Position numbers and translations under genes: made by a program. The notes below the pieces were generated by a model, which had not been told where the DNA came from, searched no databases, and was given only the letters and a program-made list of their open reading frames with translations. DNA of 41,630 nucleotides. It comes from a virus. This document shows, one piece after another, positions 22,827 to 36,182 of the stretch (positions are counted from its first letter, which is position 1; every line of letters begins with the position of its first letter). The stretch lies in the IMG/VR virus record IMGVR_UViG_3300033172_000005; one strand, 5' to 3'.

Positions 22827-23687
22827 TTACTCCAACTCAGCCAGTTGCAGGCCCCGCGCCCTGCGCCGCGCCCGCTCCATCTTCAACCGATCCGCCTCTG
22901 CCTCATCCCCATCCGTCTCAGACCACCCCGGCCACGTCCGCATAGCCGCCGGCAGGCTCACCCGATACCGCTCCTCCAAGGCCGCCAGCAGTTTCGGCGT
23001 CAACTGTCCCTCCGCCGCCATCCGCTCCGCCTTCAGAATCGCCGCCCCGGGCGTCGCCCCGTCGTATACCGCCGACACCTCCGCCAGCCGCGCGTCCCGG
23101 ATCTCCACCGTCGCCAGTTGGGTCCGCACTACGCCGTCCTCTTCCCGCTCATACTCCAGCCCCGCAAAATGCGGGCATTCAAAACTCAGATAATTGCGGC
23201 CGCAGATGTCGCACACCCAGCGCCCGCCATAGAACCCCACCGACACGTCGTGCACGATCCCGCTGCGCACGCCGGCGATGAAATCGTTTGTGTTCACGCC
23301 CGCCAGCCGCAGCCCCGCCAGCGTGAAAAAATCGGCCTCGACGACCGTTTCCTCGCCGCTCTCTCGCACCTCGCCCGTCAGCGACCGGCCCAGCGGCATC
23401 TCGTGCCAGCGATGCGAGTTCTGGAACGACACGCCCTCCGCCGCCGCCCGCGCGAAATTCGCCAGCGTGCTCGCCGCCATGTGCGTGTAGTACGCATCCA
23501 GCCGCGACGAGCTGATCTCCGCCCGCCAGAAAAACGGGTCCGACTCGTCGAACACCGCCGGGTCATACGCGCTCTGCTCCCGCGCCATCTGCAACAGCGC
23601 CTCCGCCCGTTCGCCCCGCACGGCCGCCGCCCGCGCCGCATGCGCATGCACCACCCGCTCAGTCTCCATCTGACTATTGCTCCTCAT
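22827..23687 (-). CDS. Prohead maturation protease (HK97/S78-like) with a Cys-rich insertion.
   Basis: FQNSHRWHEMPLG and DVSVGFYGG are His- and Ser-containing motifs. Lies between portal and capsid. An alternative start ATG at 23669 (METERV) sits behind an AGGAG SD. Confidence 0.7.
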   Translation of the reverse strand: MRSNSQMETERVVHAHAARAAAVRGERAEALLQMAREQSAYDPAVFDESDPFFWRAEISSSRLDAYYTHMAASTLANFARAAAEGVSFQNSHRWHEMPLGRSLTGEVRESGEETVVEADFFTLAGLRLAGVNTNDFIAGVRSGIVHDVSVGFYGGRWVCDICGRNYLSFECPHFAGLEYEREEDGVVRTQLATVEIRDARLAEVSAVYDGATPGAAILKAERMAAEGQLTPKLLAALEERYRVSLPAAMRTWPGWSETDGDEAEADRLKMERARRRARGLQLAELE

Positions 23688-24891
23688 TCGCCGGCTCCTC
23701 GCCCGCCGCCGTCATGTTCATCGGCGTCAGGTACTCGTCCCCGCCCTCGATCTCGTCCATGTTCTCCAGCTTCCGGATATCGTTGGCGCTCATCCAGCCC
23801 CACTGCCGCGCCACCGCATACGCCTGATAGCGGCTCATCGTGTCCCCGCGCAGCAGACCCTCGACCAAATGTTCGGCGTAAAATCGTTTCTGCTCATTGG
23901 CCGTCAGCAGGTCCCGCTGGATCGCCTGCTCGAACCGCACCAGCCACGGCCGCACCGTGTCCGTTACGAACTCGATGGCCTGGTGCTCGATGTTGGAAAA
24001 TGTGGCCTTGTCCAGCAGCCCGATTTTGTGCGGCGGCATGCGGTAGATGCGGGCGATCTCCTCCGCCTGAAACTGACGCGTCTGCAGGAACTGCGCCTCT
24101 TCCGGCGGCACGCTCAGCGTCTCCACCGTCATCCCCTCCTCGAGGATGCGGATGCGATGCGCCTGGCTCAGCCCGCCGTGCTCTTCCTGCCACGACCCTT
24201 TCAGCCGGTCGTACGCCTTGTCGCTCAGCGCGCCCGGGTGCTGCAGCACGATCCCCGGCCTGGCCCCGTTGCCGAAAAAACGCGCGCCGTATTCCTCCGT
24301 CGCCAGCGCCAGACCCACCGCCTGCATCGCCGTGCGCACGGGCGAATAGCCCACCAGCCCGTCGCCGCTCAGCGTGCGCACATGGTGCACCTGTTCCCGG
24401 CGAAGCTTCACCGTGCTGCCGTCGCCCGGCGCGTACTCATACTCCACCTGCCCGCGCACCCGCCGCACCGCCATCCGGTCCGGCCGCAGCGGCCACAGCT
24501 CCGCCGTCTGCCCGCTGCCGTTGCGCACGATCTCTGCGTACGCATTGCCCCACAGGCACAGGCTCGCCGTCATCATCTCGCGGAACTCCATCGCCGTCTG
24601 TTCCGGGTTCGGCTGCGTGTGCAGAATGCGGTACAGCGGATGATTCTCCGCCCGCGCCTTCCCCCGCGTCTGGCGCTGATAGACGATCAGCGGCAGGCTG
24701 GCGACCGTCTCGCTCAGCACGCGCACGCACGCGTACACCGCCGGCAGCGCCAGCGCGCCCTCTTCCGTCACCGTCACCCCGGCGTATGTGGAGGCGCTCT
24801 GCAGGCCGAACAGCCGCGCCCAGTCCGCATCCTGGCTCGGATGCGTCCGCCTGCTCACCTCGCCCAACAATCTCGCCGTAAAACCGGTCAT
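23674..24891 (-). CDS. Portal protein, HK97 family.
   Basis: LPAVYACVRVLSETVASLPLIVYQR...NHPLYRILHTQPNPEQTAMEFREMM...WGNAYAEI matches the HK97-type portal pattern. The ATG at 24891 (MTGFTARL) is chosen because the longer TTG start at 25008 would overlap the promoter and terminator. Confidence 0.88.
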   Translation of the reverse strand: MTGFTARLLGEVSRRTHPSQDADWARLFGLQSASTYAGVTVTEEGALALPAVYACVRVLSETVASLPLIVYQRQTRGKARAENHPLYRILHTQPNPEQTAMEFREMMTASLCLWGNAYAEIVRNGSGQTAELWPLRPDRMAVRRVRGQVEYEYAPGDGSTVKLRREQVHHVRTLSGDGLVGYSPVRTAMQAVGLALATEEYGARFFGNGARPGIVLQHPGALSDKAYDRLKGSWQEEHGGLSQAHRIRILEEGMTVETLSVPPEEAQFLQTRQFQAEEIARIYRMPPHKIGLLDKATFSNIEHQAIEFVTDTVRPWLVRFEQAIQRDLLTANEQKRFYAEHLVEGLLRGDTMSRYQAYAVARQWGWMSANDIRKLENMDEIEGGDEYLTPMNMTAAGEEPANEEQ

Positions 24892-27111: not shown

Positions 27112-27798
27112 CTACGGCCTATGCTCCACCACAACCAGCGGATCCGCCCAAATCCCGAACCCCCGCGCCCGCGCCATCCGGCACAGACCCCGGTCCACCT
27201 CCGCCGCCGTATACCGGCAGCCCGCCCGCAGCACCTCCGCCCGCATCAACAGCGTTCCGCCCACCGTCTGCATCTTCACCAGGTCCCGCCCATAGCGCCG
27301 CCCCAGGTCGAACCGCCCGAACGCCGGCACGCCGCGCCCGTCTTCCGTGCTGAACGCCCAGATGTCGTAGAACACATTGCCCATAAACACGAACGGCGCA
27401 ACCAGGTCCGCCCCCGGCCGCTCCAGATCATCTGCCAGCCGCTGCAGCATATCCGCCTCATACACGATGTCGCTCGGCAGCATCAGCACATAATCCGACC
27501 AGCCCAGGTCGACCGCATCCATGCCCGCATTATACACCGTCGCCAGCGTCGCAAACCGCTCCGCATTCACCACGCTCCCATAATGCGGCGCGCCCGTATC
27601 GCAGCGCACCACCCGCCAGCGCGGATCCCAACACGCCTGCTCTTCCAGCCGCGCCCGCGTCCCGTCCGCGCTGTCGCCCTCCACCGCAACCACGCGCAGC
27701 GCCTCCCACTCCCACGCCAGCCCGTCCACCCGGTCCGCAAACGCCTCGACCCGCCCCTCGCAATCGCGGAACGGCGCAACAATCGTCACATTCCCCAT
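27112..27798 (-). CDS. Family-2-like (GT-A fold) glycosyltransferase, 228 aa.
   Basis: VTIVAPFRDCE...VVAVEGDSADGTRARL resembles the GT2 N-terminal signature (xDxSxDGT). LPSD acidic motif. No transmembrane segment. Confidence 0.7.
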   Translation of the reverse strand: MGNVTIVAPFRDCEGRVEAFADRVDGLAWEWEALRVVAVEGDSADGTRARLEEQACWDPRWRVVRCDTGAPHYGSVVNAERFATLATVYNAGMDAVDLGWSDYVLMLPSDIVYEADMLQRLADDLERPGADLVAPFVFMGNVFYDIWAFSTEDGRGVPAFGRFDLGRRYGRDLVKMQTVGGTLLMRAEVLRAGCRYTAAEVDRGLCRMARARGFGIWADPLVVVEHRP

Positions 27799-27874: not shown

Positions 27875-28357
27875 CTAGTCCCCCCATCTGATCAGCCCGC
27901 TGGAAGTCACCCTCCCCACGAAACGGGGTTGCGGCGTGAGTTCCCGCGCCGGATTCCCCGCCACGATGGCGAACGCCGGCACATCGCGCGTCACCACCGC
28001 CCCCGCGCCCACCAGCGCCCCGCGCCCGATGCGCACCGGCAGCAGCACCGCCCCGCTGCCGATGCTCGCCCCATCCTCGATCACCGTCCGCAAATGCCCC
28101 GGCGCGCCTTCCGTCGAGGGCCGCTTGTCGTTCGTCGTCATCACCCCATGCCCGATGAACACCCCGTTCCCCACGCGCACCCCCGCGCACAGAAACGTGT
28201 GGCTCTCGATCTTGCAGCCCTCGCCGATCTCCACATCCTCCTGGATCTCCACGAACGGCCCCACGAACGTCCCCGCCCCGATGAAACACCGGTACAGGTT
28301 CACCAGGTCAGGGAAGGGGATCCGCACCCCCTCCCCCAGCACGCAGTTCTCAATCAT
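27875..28357 (-). CDS. Hexapeptide-repeat (left-handed beta-helix) acyl/acetyltransferase, 160 aa.
   Basis: Repeated [LIV]-G-x4 turns: IGEGCKIESHTFLCAGVRVGNGVFIGHGV...IEDGASIGSGAVLLPVRIGRGALVGAGAVVTRDVPAFAIVAGNPAR. ATGA overlap with GT4. Confidence 0.8.
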   Translation of the reverse strand: MIENCVLGEGVRIPFPDLVNLYRCFIGAGTFVGPFVEIQEDVEIGEGCKIESHTFLCAGVRVGNGVFIGHGVMTTNDKRPSTEGAPGHLRTVIEDGASIGSGAVLLPVRIGRGALVGAGAVVTRDVPAFAIVAGNPARELTPQPRFVGRVTSSGLIRWGD

Positions 28358-29556
28358 CCCTGATCCGCCAACTCCGCAATCACCGGCTGCCAGTAATCCT
28401 CCACCACCCTGTCCCAGCCGTACTCCTCGTGCGCCCAGCGGCTCGCCTCCCGCCGCAGCGTCATCGGCCAACGCCCGCCCTGCAGCGCCCAATCCTCATA
28501 CAGCCGCTCCAGCGCCGCCTGCATCCCCCGCCAGTCCGGCCAACTCCACCAACATCCCAGATGCGACCAGCACAGATCCGCCGGCGCAACCCGCTCGCCC
28601 CACATCACCAGCTCGCTCATCGACGCGAAATCCGTCGTCACCACCGGCGTGCCGCACGCCTGCGCCTCCAGGATCGGCAGGCCGAACCCCTCGCTCTTCG
28701 ACCCCGCAATCAGCGCATCCGCGCAGTTATACAGGGCCACCATCACGTTCTCCGGGTAACCCATCCAGTACTGGCGCTGGTCGGCAAACACCACCCGATC
28801 CAAAATGCCCAGCTCCCGCGCCAGCTCCGTCAGGTCATAACCGCCGAACCGCGTCCCCGCCTCCGTGTGCACATACAGCCGCGCCTGCGGCTTGCCCGCA
28901 GCGAAGGCCGCCCACGCCCGCAAATTGCCTTGAAAATGCTTGCGGTCGTCGCTGCCCTTATTCGCCGCCACCATCAGCGTCAAATGCTCCACGCCGGGGA
29001 ACCACTCCTCCCGCCAGTGCGCCCGCTCCGCCTCGTCCAGCACGCGGAACGTTTTCGGCTCCACCCCGTGCGGCACATACAGCGCCCGCTCTACGCCCGC
29101 CTTGTGCAGCTCCTCCAGCCCCCAGCGGCTGTACACCAACGGCCTGTGCGCCGTATCCAGCGCCGCCCGCACCCGCGCCGCCACCGGCGCCCCGTCGACG
29201 GGGAACCACGGCAGCCACTTCGCCGGCGCAACCCGCTCCCCCACCCCGTGTTGCGTCCACACGTCGATCAGCGTAATCACCGCGTCCGCCTCGAAATCCC
29301 GCGCGTACGCCCCGATCATATCCGTCCCGTACGGCTGCGCCCCTGCCGGATAAACCCTGAACCCGTCCACCATCATCGAACCGCCGGCAAGTCCGAACCA
29401 GGCAAACATCGCCACATTCTCACGGCCGCCCACCTCCGGCAGCGCCGCCAGCCGCGGCAGCAAATGTTTGCCCTGCGTTCCGTATCCGGTCGACACCCAA
29501 AAACCATTTGAGGAGTACAGGATCCTCAGCCCCTTCCGCCCTTCTCCGTTCGCCAT
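28354..29556 (-). CDS. GT-B fold, family-4-like glycosyltransferase, 400 aa.
   Basis: E-x7-E motif in SKSEGFGLPILEAQACGTPVVTTD. ATG at 29556 (MANGEGRKGLRILY) behind a GAGGA SD. Confidence 0.8.
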   Translation of the reverse strand: MANGEGRKGLRILYSSNGFWVSTGYGTQGKHLLPRLAALPEVGGRENVAMFAWFGLAGGSMMVDGFRVYPAGAQPYGTDMIGAYARDFEADAVITLIDVWTQHGVGERVAPAKWLPWFPVDGAPVAARVRAALDTAHRPLVYSRWGLEELHKAGVERALYVPHGVEPKTFRVLDEAERAHWREEWFPGVEHLTLMVAANKGSDDRKHFQGNLRAWAAFAAGKPQARLYVHTEAGTRFGGYDLTELARELGILDRVVFADQRQYWMGYPENVMVALYNCADALIAGSKSEGFGLPILEAQACGTPVVTTDFASMSELVMWGERVAPADLCWSHLGCWWSWPDWRGMQAALERLYEDWALQGGRWPMTLRREASRWAHEEYGWDRVVEDYWQPVIAELADQG

Positions 29557-29578
29557 TCGTTGATCCTCGTCGTTGTGC

Positions 29579-30508
29579 CTATCTGCTGAATTGCCAAAGG
29601 GCTGAAACTCGCCCCATATCCCACGCAGCCGCCATCTGCCGGCGCAGCTTCTCCTCAACCTGCTCCGCGCCTGCTTCCGAATACCATTGCAGAGCTGCCC
29701 CGTCCCGATCTGTCAACACATCCAGCAAAATGCCGTAGCGCAGCGCCGCTTCGATGTACGGTTCCGGCGTATACCATTCGTTATTTCCGCTGTTGTGCGT
29801 TACGTGCGGACGCACGTTCCGCTCTGGCGCTTCCGCATATATGTCATCTATTGTTTCGTAATCTTCAGGGTATCCGCCCCACACCTCAGCCTGCTCAGCC
29901 GATGTTGGTTCCGGCCCAGAAGCCCACGCCGGCAGCGGTTGCGGTTCGGGCTGGGACAGCGGTACAACCGTCCGCTTACCGATGTTCTCCGTGTTGATCG
30001 TGTAGGTTGTGCCGTTGCGGGTGGCTTTGATCTTATCTGGGCGTTGCATCTTGCCCACTGAGCAGGATGCAAACTCGGCAAACCAACGGGAAAGAGTCTG
30101 CCGCGGGATCATTGTGTGGCGGGCAATTTCGCTCTGACCCTTGCCAAACCATTCAGGATCAAAATAGATGCGTTGGGCGATCTTCTTCAGATCGGCACTG
30201 TTACGCCGCAGCCCATAATCTCGATTCGCACCCAACGCCCACCACTGAGCATCGCGCTTTGTCCCATGGTGTAGTTCGGCGGGAAAGACCATCAATCCGG
30301 CATAATCTCGCGCCGCTGTAACGCGATGAAAACCATCCGCCAACCAGTAAGTAGAGCCGTCGAAGAACACCACCACGGGCGGAAACTGTGCGCCGTCTTT
30401 CATGGCCGCGGCATACTCGCCAACAACGATCATGTCGAGCTGATAACGCGCTTGTATATCTTCATCAAGCACAATGGATCTGAGTTCTATTTCTTTCATT
30501 TCGTTCAT
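29579..30508 (-). CDS. ParB-like nuclease domain plus HTH protein, with a truncated Dam-type methyltransferase start at the C-terminus.
   Basis: FFDGSTYWLADGFHRVTAA is the ParB/Srx DGxHR motif. GQSEIARHTMIPRQTLSRW is an HTH. NNEWYTPEPYIEAA resembles an MTase N-terminus, but no (D/N)PP(Y/F/W) follows. Lower GC by eye. Confidence 0.7.
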   Translation of the reverse strand: MNEMKEIELRSIVLDEDIQARYQLDMIVVGEYAAAMKDGAQFPPVVVFFDGSTYWLADGFHRVTAARDYAGLMVFPAELHHGTKRDAQWWALGANRDYGLRRNSADLKKIAQRIYFDPEWFGKGQSEIARHTMIPRQTLSRWFAEFASCSVGKMQRPDKIKATRNGTTYTINTENIGKRTVVPLSQPEPQPLPAWASGPEPTSAEQAEVWGGYPEDYETIDDIYAEAPERNVRPHVTHNSGNNEWYTPEPYIEAALRYGILLDVLTDRDGAALQWYSEAGAEQVEEKLRRQMAAAWDMGRVSALWQFSR

Positions 30509-30825
30509 CGCGCTTGCACCGCATAGTTCTCAATTGTTGCAATCTGATTATCGTCATACACATCCGACAGTTGCCGTTTGAACTCGAAATACCTGTCGCC
30601 GCTCTTTTTGTCACGTAGTCGCTTCGCGGCCTCATGCACAATCGCATGGCAGTTGGGGCAGAGATAGACAAGATTCTCAGGCCGGTTCACGCCATCCCGA
30701 CTCACAGGGATTACATGGTGTAGGCGCAAAATGGAGTGAATCCAGAAGCCGCAAATCTCGCATTCGGACCCTTGGGCGAGCGTCGCCTTGCGCCATTTCA
30801 TTGCTTCGTATCGAATGTTATTCAT
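30505..30825 (-). CDS. HNH endonuclease (106 aa).
   Basis: CEICGFW...LHHVIPVSRDGVNRPENLVYLCPNCHAIVH gives the HNH and zinc-finger motifs. ATGA overlap with the ParB-like gene. Lower GC by eye. Confidence 0.85.
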   Translation of the reverse strand: MNNIRYEAMKWRKATLAQGSECEICGFWIHSILRLHHVIPVSRDGVNRPENLVYLCPNCHAIVHEAAKRLRDKKSGDRYFEFKRQLSDVYDDNQIATIENYAVQAR

Positions 30826-30934
30826 CCTGTGCGCCCTCTTTCATCGCCTGCGCATATTCGCTCGTGGCGATCCAGTCCAGTTGCACCCGGCTCTGCGTTC
30901 CGCCGTCCATCCGAATGAGATTGATGTCAAGCAT
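30818..30934 (-). pseudogene. 38-aa N-terminal ParB-like gene fragment ending at the HNH start codon.
   Basis: MLDINLIRMDGGTQSRVQLDWIATSEYAQAMKEGAQDE aligns 17/35 (by hand) with residues 7-41 of the downstream ParB-like protein. AGGAGG SD. Its stop overlaps the HNH ATG region. Confidence 0.55.
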
Positions 30935-30974
30935 TTGTCCTCCTGAAATGCCGTTGGATGTAGTGCCCACAGTC

Positions 30975-31166
30975 CTACTCCTCCCCGTCCTCCTCGAAGC
31001 CGAGCGTCATTCCGCAATTCAGCACCCGCGCCGCCAACCGGATCAACCCCTTCGCCAGCCAAATGCGCAGCTTCAATTCCCGCAACCGCGTCACCCGCAC
31101 CTTGACGACCAACCTGCTCCCCCGCATCAACGCCACGCTATTGACCGTCACCGTCTTCTTCCCCAT
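30975..31166 (-). CDS. Small hypothetical protein (63 aa).
   Basis: Internal ATG (MGKKTVTV...) of track ORF 30975..31250. Composition is plausible. Confidence 0.4.
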   Translation of the reverse strand: MGKKTVTVNSVALMRGSRLVVKVRVTRLRELKLRIWLAKGLIRLAARVLNCGMTLGFEEDGEE

Positions 31167-31578
31167 CCCTCTCCCCCCTCGCCAGCCGCAACACCGCACG
31201 TCGCGCCGCATCCTCATCCTCATACCGCCCGTAAAACTCCCACCCCGCACGCGGCCGCCGCTGCACCAACACCTCCGTGCGCTCCTCCGGGTTCACCCGA
31301 AACCGCGCCAACCCGCTCCCCGGCTGCGCCTCCACCGTCACACCGTCACCCTCCTCAACGCCATGCGCCACAACCGAAACCTGCATATCCGACAGACCCA
31401 CCGCCAACAACTGCGCCGTCGCCGCCGCCAGCGCCTCGCTCGACGACGGCCACACCTCCACCCTCACCCGCAGCACATCGTTGGCAGCGCCCTCGACCGT
31501 GATCCGCTGCACGTTCATCGGGTCCAGACCCAACGCCTCGCACGCCATCAGCCCCCACACACGCCCCGATTCCGCCAC
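31138..31578 (-). CDS. Hypothetical protein (146 aa) downstream of terL.
   Basis: ATG ORF with ordinary composition. No recognisable motif. Confidence 0.55.
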   Translation of the reverse strand: MAESGRVWGLMACEALGLDPMNVQRITVEGAANDVLRVRVEVWPSSSEALAAATAQLLAVGLSDMQVSVVAHGVEEGDGVTVEAQPGSGLARFRVNPEERTEVLVQRRPRAGWEFYGRYEDEDAARRAVLRLARGERDGEEDGDGQ

Positions 31579-31618
31579 TATTCCTCCCTCCGGATCACTC
31601 CGCCATCCTTTCCTCGGC

Positions 31619-33172
31619 TCATAGCTCCCGCAACCCCCGCTCCTCGTACACGCTCGCCGACTCCTCGTTGCGCACCGCCCGGTCCAGCGCCATCACCGCC
31701 GCCACGATCCCATCGATTTTCTCCCGGCTCTTCCCCTTGTTCGGCTTCACGTTCCCCGCCGCGTCGATGTCCACCGTCACATTGTCCGCCATCCAGCGCA
31801 GCACCGGGTGCCCGCCGTGCATCAGCCCGTGCGCCAACACCAGCCGCAGCAATTCCTTCGTCGGATGGCTCATGCTCGCAAACCCCTGGCCCATCTGCAC
31901 CATCTCGAACCCCGCGCCCTCCAACAACTGCCGCACCATCTCCGCGCCCCAACGGTCGAAGGCGATCTGCTCGATCTTGTACCGTTGCCCCAGCGCCTCG
32001 ATATCGCGCAGGATCACCCCGTAGTCGATCACGTTGCCCGGCGTCGCCGTCATATACCCGTCCCGCACCCAGGCGTCGTACGGAACCCGGTCCTTGCGCA
32101 TCCGCTCCGTCAGCGTCTCACGCGGCGTCCAGAAAAACGGCAGCAGATAAAACGGCTCATCCTCCCGCTCCGGCGGAAACGCCAGCACAAACGCCGCAAT
32201 ATCCGTCGTCGACGCCAGGTCCAACCCCCCGAAACACCGCCGCCCCGCCAGCTCCGGCAGCGCCCCGTCGCACGCATCCCATGCCGCCATATCCAGCCAC
32301 CGCTCATCTTGCGAGGTCCACTGATTTAAATGCAGCCTCCGAAACGCATTCTGATACGCCGGCGACGCCTTCGCCCGCGCGCACTGCTCCCGCAGATACT
32401 CTTCAGAAATCGTCACCCCCAGCCCCGGGTTCGCCTTCGCCCACGTCGCCGGGTCCGTCCAGTCGTCCCCCTCATCCGCCGCCGCGATGAAGGCGAAATA
32501 GCTCGGGTCCTCCACGATCCCCGCCAGCACCTGCCGCGCATACTCGTGCTGCTCCCAACACACGCTCGTCCGGTCATACCCCGCCGTCGTAATCATCACC
32601 ATCAACGGCTGCCGCCGTGCGCCCGTCGAGGTCGTCAACACGTCGTACAACTCCCGATTCGGCTGCGCGTGCAACTCGTCGAAAATGATCCCGTGCGCGT
32701 TCAGCCCGTGTTTCGTAAACGCGTCCGCGGACAATACCTTGTACGAAGAGCGTGTCTTCGGCGCCACAATGCTGTTGCGATACGCCAGCGCCCGCCTGCT
32801 CAACTCCGGCGACTCCTCCACCATGGCCCGCGCCTGGTCGAACACGATCCTCGCCTGCTCCCGGTCCGCCGCCGCGCTGTACACCTCCGCCCCGGCCTCC
32901 CCGTCCGCAAACAGCAGATACAGCGCAATCCCGCTGCTGATCGTGCTCTTCCCCTGCTTGCGCGGGATCTCGATATACGCCGTCCGGTAGCGCCGCGACC
33001 CGTCGCGCCGCATCCAACCGAACAGCGGGCGCACGATCTCATCCCGCTGCCACTCCTGCAGTTTGAACGGCTCCCCGGCCCACTCGCCCTTCGTATGCCG
33101 TAGAAACCGCTCGAAAAAGCCGACCGCACGATCAGCCGCCCCTGCGTCGTACCAGTACTCGCTAATTGCCAT
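31619..33172 (-). CDS. terL: Terminase large subunit.
   Basis: Walker A-like IEIPRKQGKSTISSGIAL, then a Terminase_1-type body (FDELHAQPNRELYDVLTTSTGARRQPLMVMITTAG) and a C-terminal nuclease region (IDGIVAAVMAL). Confidence 0.92.
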   Translation of the reverse strand: MAISEYWYDAGAADRAVGFFERFLRHTKGEWAGEPFKLQEWQRDEIVRPLFGWMRRDGSRRYRTAYIEIPRKQGKSTISSGIALYLLFADGEAGAEVYSAAADREQARIVFDQARAMVEESPELSRRALAYRNSIVAPKTRSSYKVLSADAFTKHGLNAHGIIFDELHAQPNRELYDVLTTSTGARRQPLMVMITTAGYDRTSVCWEQHEYARQVLAGIVEDPSYFAFIAAADEGDDWTDPATWAKANPGLGVTISEEYLREQCARAKASPAYQNAFRRLHLNQWTSQDERWLDMAAWDACDGALPELAGRRCFGGLDLASTTDIAAFVLAFPPEREDEPFYLLPFFWTPRETLTERMRKDRVPYDAWVRDGYMTATPGNVIDYGVILRDIEALGQRYKIEQIAFDRWGAEMVRQLLEGAGFEMVQMGQGFASMSHPTKELLRLVLAHGLMHGGHPVLRWMADNVTVDIDAAGNVKPNKGKSREKIDGIVAAVMALDRAVRNEESASVYEERGLREL

Positions 33173-35287: not shown

Positions 35288-35734
35288 CTAGTACCCGAAA
35301 AAATCATCGGCGTCTTCCGGCTCCGCCACGCTCAGCCTGGCCCGCGCCGAGGCCGTCAACCCGAACTGCATCGCATACGATCTGAATGCCGTGCTGTTGT
35401 CCCGCAGCACCTGCAACAATGGATGCTTCCTCGTCAGCCCCCGCTCATCCGTCGTCGTCAGCCCATCCTGTTTCAACTGTTTTGCCGCCCGTTCCGCCAG
35501 CGCATAATGTGTCGCCATCATCGCCAGCGCCGGCCCGTCCACCTCCGTCGCCACACCCAGCGCCACAAGCCGCGGCACATGCTCCCGCCAAAAGCGCCGC
35601 GCCTCCGTCAGCATATTGCGCGGCATCTTCGGCTCCCTGGTCGGCGGCTTCGGCTCCCCGCCGTTCAGCGTCCGCTTGCCCGGGTTCCCCTCCAACACCT
35701 TCAGCGCCGTGGGCTTCGGCGGCCTCCCCACCAT
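35288..35734 (-). CDS. terS: Terminase small subunit (P27 family-like).
   Basis: MVGRPPKPTALKVLEGNPGKR...EARRFWREHVPRLVALGV...DGPALAMMATHYALAERA matches the P27-family pattern. An HNH gene lies upstream. Confidence 0.85.
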   Translation of the reverse strand: MVGRPPKPTALKVLEGNPGKRTLNGGEPKPPTREPKMPRNMLTEARRFWREHVPRLVALGVATEVDGPALAMMATHYALAERAAKQLKQDGLTTTDERGLTRKHPLLQVLRDNSTAFRSYAMQFGLTASARARLSVAEPEDADDFFGY

Positions 35735-35819: not shown

Positions 35820-36182
35820 CTAGGGATTGTCCCCGCGATTCGCCCCGCCCCTCCCCCAGACCTCATCAGCCGTTTTCTCGCCGTGATGTCGTTTGCATAA
35901 TGACTGGAGGTTGGCCCAGGCGTCCGTGCCGCCGCGCACCCTCGGCACGATGTGGTCGACGTCCGTCGCCGGCTCGCCGCAGACCGCGCAGAGTGGATGC
36001 GCACGCAGATACATGAGTCGCAACTTGCGCCACCGGCTGCCGTACCCGCGCGCCGCGCTACTGCCGCGCTGACGGTCGAACGCACGCTCTCGCTCACGCG
36101 CACATCGCTCGCAGTAACCGCCGCGCACCGCCAGCCCTGCGCACCCTGGCGTCCTACATGGTCGTCTCGCCTTCGTCGGCAT
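35820..36182 (-). CDS. HNH endonuclease (packaging-associated type, upstream of terS).
   Basis: CRTPGC...YCERC...HPLCAVCGEPATDVDHIVPRVRGGTDAWANLQSLCKRHH. ATG at 36182 (MPTKARRPC). Confidence 0.85.
   Translation of the reverse strand: MPTKARRPCRTPGCAGLAVRGGYCERCARERERAFDRQRGSSAARGYGSRWRKLRLMYLRAHPLCAVCGEPATDVDHIVPRVRGGTDAWANLQSLCKRHHGEKTADEVWGRGGANRGDNP

Follow-up and report, generated by a model that had tools for sequence, protein, structure and literature searches.

A probable homing-type HNH endonuclease gene at the 5′ end of a phage ParB–DNA-methyltransferase gene

The window analysed here is the whole of a 41,630-nucleotide viral sequence (IMG/VR record IMGVR_UViG_3300033172_000005), and the subject is a compact locus within it, in which a small HNH endonuclease gene lies between a fragment of a ParB-like reading frame and a longer ParB-like gene. 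All features of the locus are on the minus strand. The first is an open reading frame (ORF) of 38 amino acids (aa; 30934..30818), read from the sequence as MLDINLIRMDGGTQSRVQLDWIATSEYAQAMKEGAQDE and preceded by an AGGAGG Shine-Dalgarno (SD) sequence (30944..30939), which is placed 4 nucleotides (nt) before the ATG at 30934. BLASTP and a profile of ParB N-terminal domains (ParB-N) identified codons 1–36 (30827..30934) as the 5′ remnant of a consensus-type ParB-N/methyltransferase gene. The ORF closes with ...GCA CAG GAT GAA TAA, of which GAT GAA TAA (30818..30826) forms the breakpoint and consists of two non-homologous codons and the stop of the remnant. The breakpoint overlaps the start of the HNH gene (30505..30825, 106 aa). 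The HNH ATG (30825..30823), which opens the 106-codon ORF, is located inside ...CAG GAT GAA TAA, within GGATGAATAA, and the two ORFs overlap by 8 nt. At its other end, the HNH gene meets a 309-aa ParB-like ORF (30508..29579) in an ATGA overlap (30505..30508), where the start codon of the ParB-like gene makes the HNH stop. A sequence-only reading of the window had singled out the 38-aa ORF with its strong AGGAGG, the HNH ATG inside GAT GAA TAA where the small ORF ends, and the ATGA junction at which the HNH TGA overlaps the next ATG; all were found in the sequence as described.

The same reading had matched the 38-aa ORF by hand to residues 7–41 of the 309-aa protein. BLASTP returned the same 17/35 identities with a significant E-value (E) of 1e-8. 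Moreover, a ParB-N profile derived from 118 family N-termini retrieved the remnant from all six-frame ORFs of 229 loci at E 4.1e-9, over profile positions 3–39. On these BLASTP and profile statistics, chance similarity or a spurious ORF was ruled out. The remnant was closer than the downstream gene's own N-terminus to 104 of 119 family members, with the best matches at 28/35 (P0007) and 25/35 (P0005) residues. The homologues run on with FPPV after GAQ, whereas the window has two unrelated codons and a stop. Judged by these alignments, the 38-aa ORF holds codons 1–36 of a ParB-methylase allele of the consensus type. The alternative of an independent conserved gene was not borne out: distant relatives have its equivalent in the form of an in-frame leader of the HNH protein.

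We also observed that the remnant and the downstream copy become more alike toward the breakpoint, with identity rising from 44% over codons 1–18 to 58% over codons 19–29 (counted by hand from the alignment). The last 21 nt of the remnant (seven codons) are identical to the downstream copy at 19/21 positions, compared with a maximum of 17/21 in 81 other alleles. This pattern points to a recombination or conversion tract that may end at the break between the remnant and the HNH gene. The HNH start itself is provided by a stretch of 10 nt, GATGAATAAC.

The HNH protein matched Pfam PF01844 with E 8.3e-11, above the gathering score and over profile positions 1–45 of 47, and its CxxC...HH...N...CxxCH..H motifs are intact. 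The catalytic HH, the Asn and the distal His are present in the LHHVIP...ENL...CHAIVH segments of the translation, and the CEIC and CPNC pairs that form the structural zinc site are invariant across the alignment of the clade. The AlphaFold2 (AF2) model had a predicted local distance difference test (pLDDT) score of 86.8, with 88–97 for the ββα core and the C-terminal helices and 66–68 for the first 20 residues. Among PDB folds, the model came closest to 4h9d, which is the Gme HNH nicking endonuclease, and to McrA (6ghc). The ratio of nonsynonymous to synonymous substitution rates (dN/dS) was 0.08–0.16 against the homologue at the related locus L007, which corresponds to purifying selection. 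A search of 29000..31600 gave no Rfam intron match at E ≤ 1. Origin from a group I/II intron or an intein was rejected on this lack of an Rfam signal, together with an HNH ORF bounded by its stop and start and a complete N-terminus downstream. Membership in a defence system was also rejected, as PADLOC yielded only generic HNH-domain matches.

The 309-aa protein had no Pfam match at E ≤ 1, including PF02195 and Dam, while 7 of 25 aligned relatives matched PF02195 at E ≤ 1e-3. It matched PHROG 1033 'ParB-like' (E 6e-12), and its relatives combine PF02195 with PF01555, PF05869 or PF05063. Residues 1–150 (30059..30508) were modelled by AF2 with pLDDT >90 as a ParB/sulfiredoxin (Srx) N-terminal domain followed by a helix-turn-helix (HTH). 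For this part, Foldseek gave E-values of 2e-7 to 1e-4 with the structures of ParB, Noc, Spo0J and KorB, and of 4e-4 with sulfiredoxin. A family profile reached the ParB entries 7o0n and 7bnk of the PDB at E ~1e-3, and the DGFHR (GxxR box) and GANxxxGxRR motifs are present. In an alignment with 10 full-length ParB-Dam homologues, the protein tracks its relatives through ...NNEWYTPEPYIEAA, and the segment encoded by 29579..29803 is a degenerate remnant of a Dam-type (PF05869) methyltransferase. The methylase half keeps NEWYTPxxYIxAA but has lost the DPAS... segment, the catalytic NPPY and ~95 residues at its C-terminal end. The model has pLDDT <50 at residues 205–246, 259–280 and 305–309, and 64–70 over a predicted helix at 278–297. 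The idea that ParB passes abruptly into foreign sequence at ~29707 was considered and, given the alignment, replaced by in-frame erosion of the Dam domain. As far as alignment and model can tell, the downstream gene is an intact ParB-N/HTH module joined to a dead Dam methylase. Its earlier description as a complete ParB-like gene must be withdrawn, since the methyltransferase half is degenerate, with NPPY deleted and the 3′ end missing.

A population variant, L006 (JGI 3300033169), is also on record. The DNA alignment of the window, L005 and L006 shows that L006 lacks a 19-bp segment (30034..30052) between AAGAT direct repeats, which provide microhomology at the flanks; the rest of its 1.5-kb contig is identical. 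The deletion frameshifts the ParB-like gene after residue ~150 (P0002 sequence), which suggests relaxed constraint on this gene.

A word-based search found one close homologue of the HNH protein, P0122, with 69% identity, and an exhaustive search yielded 2295 HNH proteins, 54 of them below 1e-10. Nine independent lineages were distinguished, namely the window itself, L007, L011, L310, L311, L312, L313–315, L324 and L326–329. In L007, L011, L310, L312, L313–315 and L326–329, the HNH gene directly precedes, and in every case overlaps by ATGA, a ParB-N/methylase gene of the Dam or N6_N4 type. For L311 and L324, the gene directly downstream of the HNH has a non-ParB N-domain; both of these genes, being cut by the contig end, have no methylase domain on record, and the RNGTTYTMNTA linker of the ParB-methylase family is visible in the downstream gene of L324 and not in that of L311. 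The ATGA junction is found in 8/9 lineages (window, L007, L011, L310, L312, L313, L324 and L326). In these eight lineages, the HNH gene has no stop codon of its own, as the TGA is built from the target ATG plus an A; in consequence, the second codon of each downstream gene begins with A. About 218 generic HNH loci with the CPNCH pattern included none with an adjacent ParB gene, and they are too distant to inform.

Five of the HNH proteins (P0122, P0123, P0146, P0224 and P0227) start with an in-frame leader that corresponds to ParB codons 1 to ~20. In all five, the leader (E 7e-8 to 4e-4) ends at profile position ~20–26, just past the (D)GGTQxRxQ motif, as in the junction MSNTDLRVTIIRTDGGTQSRVQ|IRQEAAKW.... 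The leader is degenerate in P0127 and P0128, and absent in P0125 (L011). The leader in the window is the sole one with 36 codons and a separate, overlapping ORF, the relatives having shorter, in-frame leaders. Its left junction, at codon 36, is unlike that of the other members, and its right junction is the target ATG.

The leaders of the window and L007 share 12/18 aa and, over IRxDGGTQSRVQ, 29/36 nt (nucleotides counted by hand). At L311 (2514..3877) and L324 (138..1075), a ParB-derived leader and the HNH stand ahead of genes with a non-ParB N-domain, an arrangement that suggests either swapping of the N-domain or movement of leader and HNH as one unit. The likeness of the window and L007 leaders, their occurrence before non-ParB genes and the lack of co-variation of the downstream 5′ ends together suggest that the ParB-derived leader would belong to the HNH unit in this clade. 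It may travel with the HNH gene rather than being left by the recipient. A cassette composed of the HNH and a replacement 5′ exon, with the downstream ParB codons 1–41 as the travelling part, was rejected, as the HNHs are 69% and the downstream 5′ ends 47% identical, while the upstream leaders co-vary. We must also note that "leader plus HNH before the ATG" and "HNH plus a new 5′ end after codon ~20" are circular permutations of each other. The two descriptions of the insertion are therefore structurally equivalent, and either ParB copy could be the "resident" one.

The remnant and the downstream copy are just 49% identical, as could be expected of old paralogues or of different alleles. The locus could accordingly be read as a pair of decayed tandem paralogues, in which the upstream ParB-methylase gene was deleted to 36 codons and an unrelated HNH gene landed between the two by chance. 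Two complete tandem ParB-N genes do exist at L273 (2498..3775; IMG/VR 3300042261_002285), the only such case of 80 loci. Nevertheless, this history does not account for HNHs of the same clade that recur at one junction, with leaders ending at one motif, and it leaves the ATGA junction common to eight lineages unexplained. We regard it as quite improbable.

Our interpretation is that the locus is probably, though far from certainly, a free-standing, homing-type HNH gene that occupies the 5′ end of a phage ParB-N/HTH–DNA-methyltransferase gene. The distribution of the HNH is sporadic: among the best 80 ParB-methylase loci of IMG/VR, which served as the comparison set, an upstream HNH or a 5′ remnant was found in 0/80. 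The similarities of the HNH and of the gene beside it are also discordant. The window and L007 have 69% identity in the HNH and 47% in the ParB body, and for the window and L011 the values are 38% and 70%, respectively; these are pairwise identities of few sequences, not trees. At the motif where the leaders end, background ParB-N domains read GGTQ in 150/199 and [IV]Q in 11/199 cases. Among the HNH-linked ParB copies, 5/7 read (D/E/N)(D/E)[IV]Q, and four remnants keep GGTQ. This would fit a nuclease directed at the consensus coding sequence, from which the linked allele would escape. Also in favour are the purifying selection on an intact HNH next to a decayed methylase, the unrelated methylase domains and two kinds of N-domain among the partner genes, the lack of an intron RNA signature and the presence of a different HNH in the packaging position beside TerS.

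Several observations weigh against this interpretation. The five ParB copies with the variant motif form one clade, and the Fisher p of 2e-5 overstates their independence; furthermore, the L007 copy downstream of the HNH retains the consensus GGTQ. The searches made found no two close relatives of which one has the HNH and the other an empty site. Look-ups of the exact ParB protein and the upstream 63-aa protein showed all 11 contigs of this phage to be arranged identically and occupied, and a search with orf146 for an empty site in IMG/VR gave nothing. ParB-methylase searches that started from L313, L326 and P0003 gave only ~70–76% relatives with uninformative junctions, and GenBank phages held no close HNH or ParB relatives. 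The uninterrupted allele that the sequence-only reading had proposed to look for by alignment with related phages was thus not encountered in a close relative. The window junction, with its codon 36, separate ORF and 10 extra nt, departs from the canonical in-frame one, and both the cleavage by the HNH and its specificity are predictions. Moreover, the members of the HNH clade are deeply diverged (30–45%) while their position is constant, and long-term vertical linkage of HNH and methylase could also give such a constant position.

Taken further, that linkage would describe a stable two-gene module, in which the HNH is the functional partner of the methyltransferase (restriction-modification-like or nicking/methylation), the leader is an ancient partial duplication, nothing is mobile and the window copy is decaying. 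The HNH adjoins the methylase gene in 9/9 lineages, eight of them with ATGA (L311 and L324 are counted here with the truncated genes described above), and the deep HNH divergence suggests an old association. The in-frame junction keeps its position across distant members, the HNH is under purifying selection, and joint action of phage HNH nickases and ParB-type nickases has been raised (PMC3592412). However, the partner methylases come from unrelated catalytic families (Dam PF05869 and N6_N4 PF01555), and two partner genes have a non-ParB N-domain. The HNH is missing from 80/80 sampled ParB-methylase loci, and the HNH and ParB similarities are discordant. In the window, the catalytic motif of the methylase is deleted and the HNH is intact, a loss that a methylase-dependent restriction enzyme would not tolerate. 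On balance, we consider such a module rather unlikely, though it deserves to be kept in mind. A Type II restriction-modification pair in the strict sense was rejected, as an active cognate methyltransferase is absent in the window and the methylase families of the relatives differ.

The locus also stands out by its composition. All parts of 29579..30934 have a GC content of 0.46–0.57 and a GC content at third codon positions (GC3) of 0.51–0.69, with GC3 of 0.69 in the remnant, 0.60 in the HNH gene and 0.51–0.65 in the segments of the ParB-like ORF. Across the parts of the whole island of foreign composition (29579..30975, ~1.4 kb), which extends between orf63 and the glycosyltransferase gene, GC is 0.46–0.62. 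In TerL, orf146, orf63 and the glycosyltransferase gene, GC is 0.63–0.69 and GC3 0.82–0.92. The lower GC noticed earlier was therefore borne out by the profile (GC3 0.51–0.69 versus 0.82–0.92). The remnant and its SD region fall within the low-GC block, as does the tail of the 309-aa ORF, and no promoter or terminator signal in the island exceeded the shuffled expectation.

The whole 1.4-kb unit looks imported. As the remnant, the HNH gene and the ParB copy are all compositionally foreign, the gene that the event struck was not necessarily a resident of this phage, and the HNH/ParB rearrangement may be older than the arrival of the block. The idea of a homing scar, in which a mobile HNH gene plus a resistant ParB-like allele had replaced most of a resident ParB-like gene, is retained in one part: the HNH behaves like a mobile gene, being sporadic, discordant with its neighbour and at the same position in nine lineages. 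The other part, a hit on a resident gene, is one reading and is not required. In this phage, the island looks like decaying passenger DNA of little consequence for its carrier.

Under the homing interpretation, the three cistrons would be translated as a coupled chain, for which the remnant would provide the SD and the ATG. Ribosomes stopping at the TAA would re-initiate on the overlapping HNH ATG, and the TGA/ATG overlap would then hand them to the ParB copy. The HNH gene would thereby manage with neither a ribosome-binding site (RBS) nor a stop of its own, in parallel with the in-frame leaders of its relatives. A programmed +1 frameshift from the remnant into the HNH was considered as well, the relatives being in-frame fusions; no slippery or stimulatory signal was evident there, and the HNH has an ATG to start from. 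In co-infections or recombination that involve HNH-free relatives, the HNH would nick or cut the conserved 5′ coding segment of ParB-methylase alleles, with a putative cut region around DGGTQxRxQ...AMKDGAQ. Recombinational repair would then copy the HNH and the adjoining ParB sequence, as in intronless homing. The ParB 5′ repeat around the HNH would give both expression signals and homology and keep the target readable, and the linked ParB copy, variant at the motif of the cut region, would probably be a poor substrate. Finally, the whole block would have been carried into the high-GC phage as a passenger, and the methylase would have decayed afterwards.

It is also possible, and we put this forward only tentatively, that the unit is a self-contained homing cassette. 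Such a cassette would carry the first ~20–36 codons of its target as an RBS and start region (a leader or a coupled mini-ORF) and as a homology arm, and its HNH would end on the start codon of an orphan methylase. The window would then represent a second-generation step, recombination with a complete ParB allele having lengthened the leader. Within this reading, an HNH that ends exactly on the target start codon could invade ParB-Dam genes, ParB-N6_N4 genes and genes with a non-ParB N-domain without inactivating them.

The block lies downstream of the gene for the large terminase, TerL (33172..31619, minus strand) and two small host-like ORFs, and it is part of a transcription unit that runs from TerL to the glycosyltransferase gene. 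This position raises the question of an HNH that assists the terminase in packaging, as HK97 gp74 does. The gene lies ~800 bp downstream of TerL, the protein has a weak PHROG match to a 'terminase small subunit' family, and phage HNH genes commonly adjoin terminase genes (PMC3592412). The terminase-associated HNHs of the HK97 gp74 type (PMC3592412) are small and zinc-bound like the island HNH and comparable to it in size, and the prophage nickase 4h9d is one of them, but they differ from it in genomic position and neighbours. The canonical place, directly upstream of TerS, is already taken by a second HNH. The relatives of the island HNH sit in replication or early regions, beside SSB, primase, Rep_O and repressor genes, and not beside terminases; furthermore, the island is compositionally foreign. 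A packaging role is therefore very hard to credit.

The second HNH gene (120 aa, 35820..36182, minus strand) is unrelated to the first, and the TerS gene (Terminase_4) that follows it occupies 35288..35734 on the minus strand. Between TerL (31619..33172) and the portal gene (23674..24891), there is a gap of ~6.7 kb with a moron-like insert that is unusual in a packaging module; the island is a passenger in this moron-rich stretch. It contains a GT4 glycosyltransferase gene (28354..29556), a hexapeptide-repeat transferase gene (27875..28357), a GT2 gene (27112..27798) and an HTH block on the opposite strand. The contigs L001, L002 and L318–L321 (41,630 and 41,644 bp) belong to the same phage, come from different samples and carry the genes at shifted coordinates, as would be seen if they were circularly permuted copies of one complete ~41.6-kb genome.

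The free-standing nuclease genes of phage T4 are a natural point of comparison, and SegF and SegG are further T4 examples of free-standing homing. T4 MobA, together with the gene 60 bypass cassette, on which Bonocora et al. are said to have reported in 2011, is reportedly a nuclease that travels with a piece of its target. That piece, a 50-nt translational bypass element, is said to preserve the function of the target and to destroy the cleavage site. Compared with it, the piece that goes along here would be the 5′ coding end, duplicated or in variant form, which is one of the two equivalent descriptions. In the seg/mob genes of T4 ('intronless homing', e.g. mobE, PMC2790892), as at our locus, a small nuclease ORF lies outside any intron or intein at a conserved gene; the likeness extends to a sporadic presence among relatives, flank co-conversion and a phylogeny discordant with the neighbours. 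For the most part, the T4 enzymes are GIY-YIG or HNH proteins that carry NUMOD-type modules for DNA binding and are encoded in intergenic positions with their own signals. In contrast, the island HNH is a minimal, zinc-bound McrA/IscB-like module without its own stop codon. It borrows the start region of its target and is followed by a full copy of the target 5′ end, and its homing is putative.

Of the cases described so far, the nearest is ShiLan, a hidden HNH insertion element in DNA methylase genes of actinobacteriophages, for which homing was inferred (Arsenault, Gosselin and Gogarten 2025, PMC11855218). As with the island HNH, its distribution is patchy and homing-like, its host is a non-essential phage DNA methylase gene and the translation of the HNH depends on the host transcript (PMC11855218). 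ShiLan differs in that it lies inside the methylase ORF in another frame, so that the methylase reads through (PMC11855218), whereas the island HNH is upstream of the whole gene and flanked by a duplicated ParB 5′ end. The similarity between the two HNHs is marginal (E 7e-4 over 39 residues). Our tblastn search weakly matched these mycobacteriophage methylase genes; in L322 (Mycobacterium phage Lamina13, gp61/gp62) and L323 (HanShotFirst gp60), methylase genes with an embedded HNH segment correspond to ShiLan.

Phage fusions of a ParB-CTPase fold with a DNA methyltransferase are common, and the family is enriched in phages and prophages (PMC12704722); PMC3592412 cites a B. cereus prophage ParB-methyltransferase with nicking activity. 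These fusions share the ParB/Srx N-domain, the HTH, the linker and an N6_N4, Dam or MT-A70 methylase with the target gene family, although the window copy has lost the catalytic core of the methylase. PMC12704722 and PMC3592412 describe no HNH gene at the 5′ end of such fusions, and a strong association of HNHs with methylases was, according to PMC11855218, not yet known. In our limited literature search, no account came up of a clade of HNH genes that occupy the 5′ ends of ParB-methylase genes and carry target-derived leaders. The recurrent HNH/methylase-gene architecture is thus apparently undescribed so far.

ParB–methyltransferase fusions are abundant in phages, and their function is poorly understood. 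If the homing interpretation is true, the HNH clade would add an independent second example of phage methylases exploited by selfish nucleases, here with the start of the target reused and the target kept readable. It would account for unusual N-termini in HNH annotations and for short mini-ORFs that resemble ParB, and such junctions would mark recombination boundaries in phage mosaics. The clade would also be a source of small nickases whose recognition sequences are conserved and potentially long.

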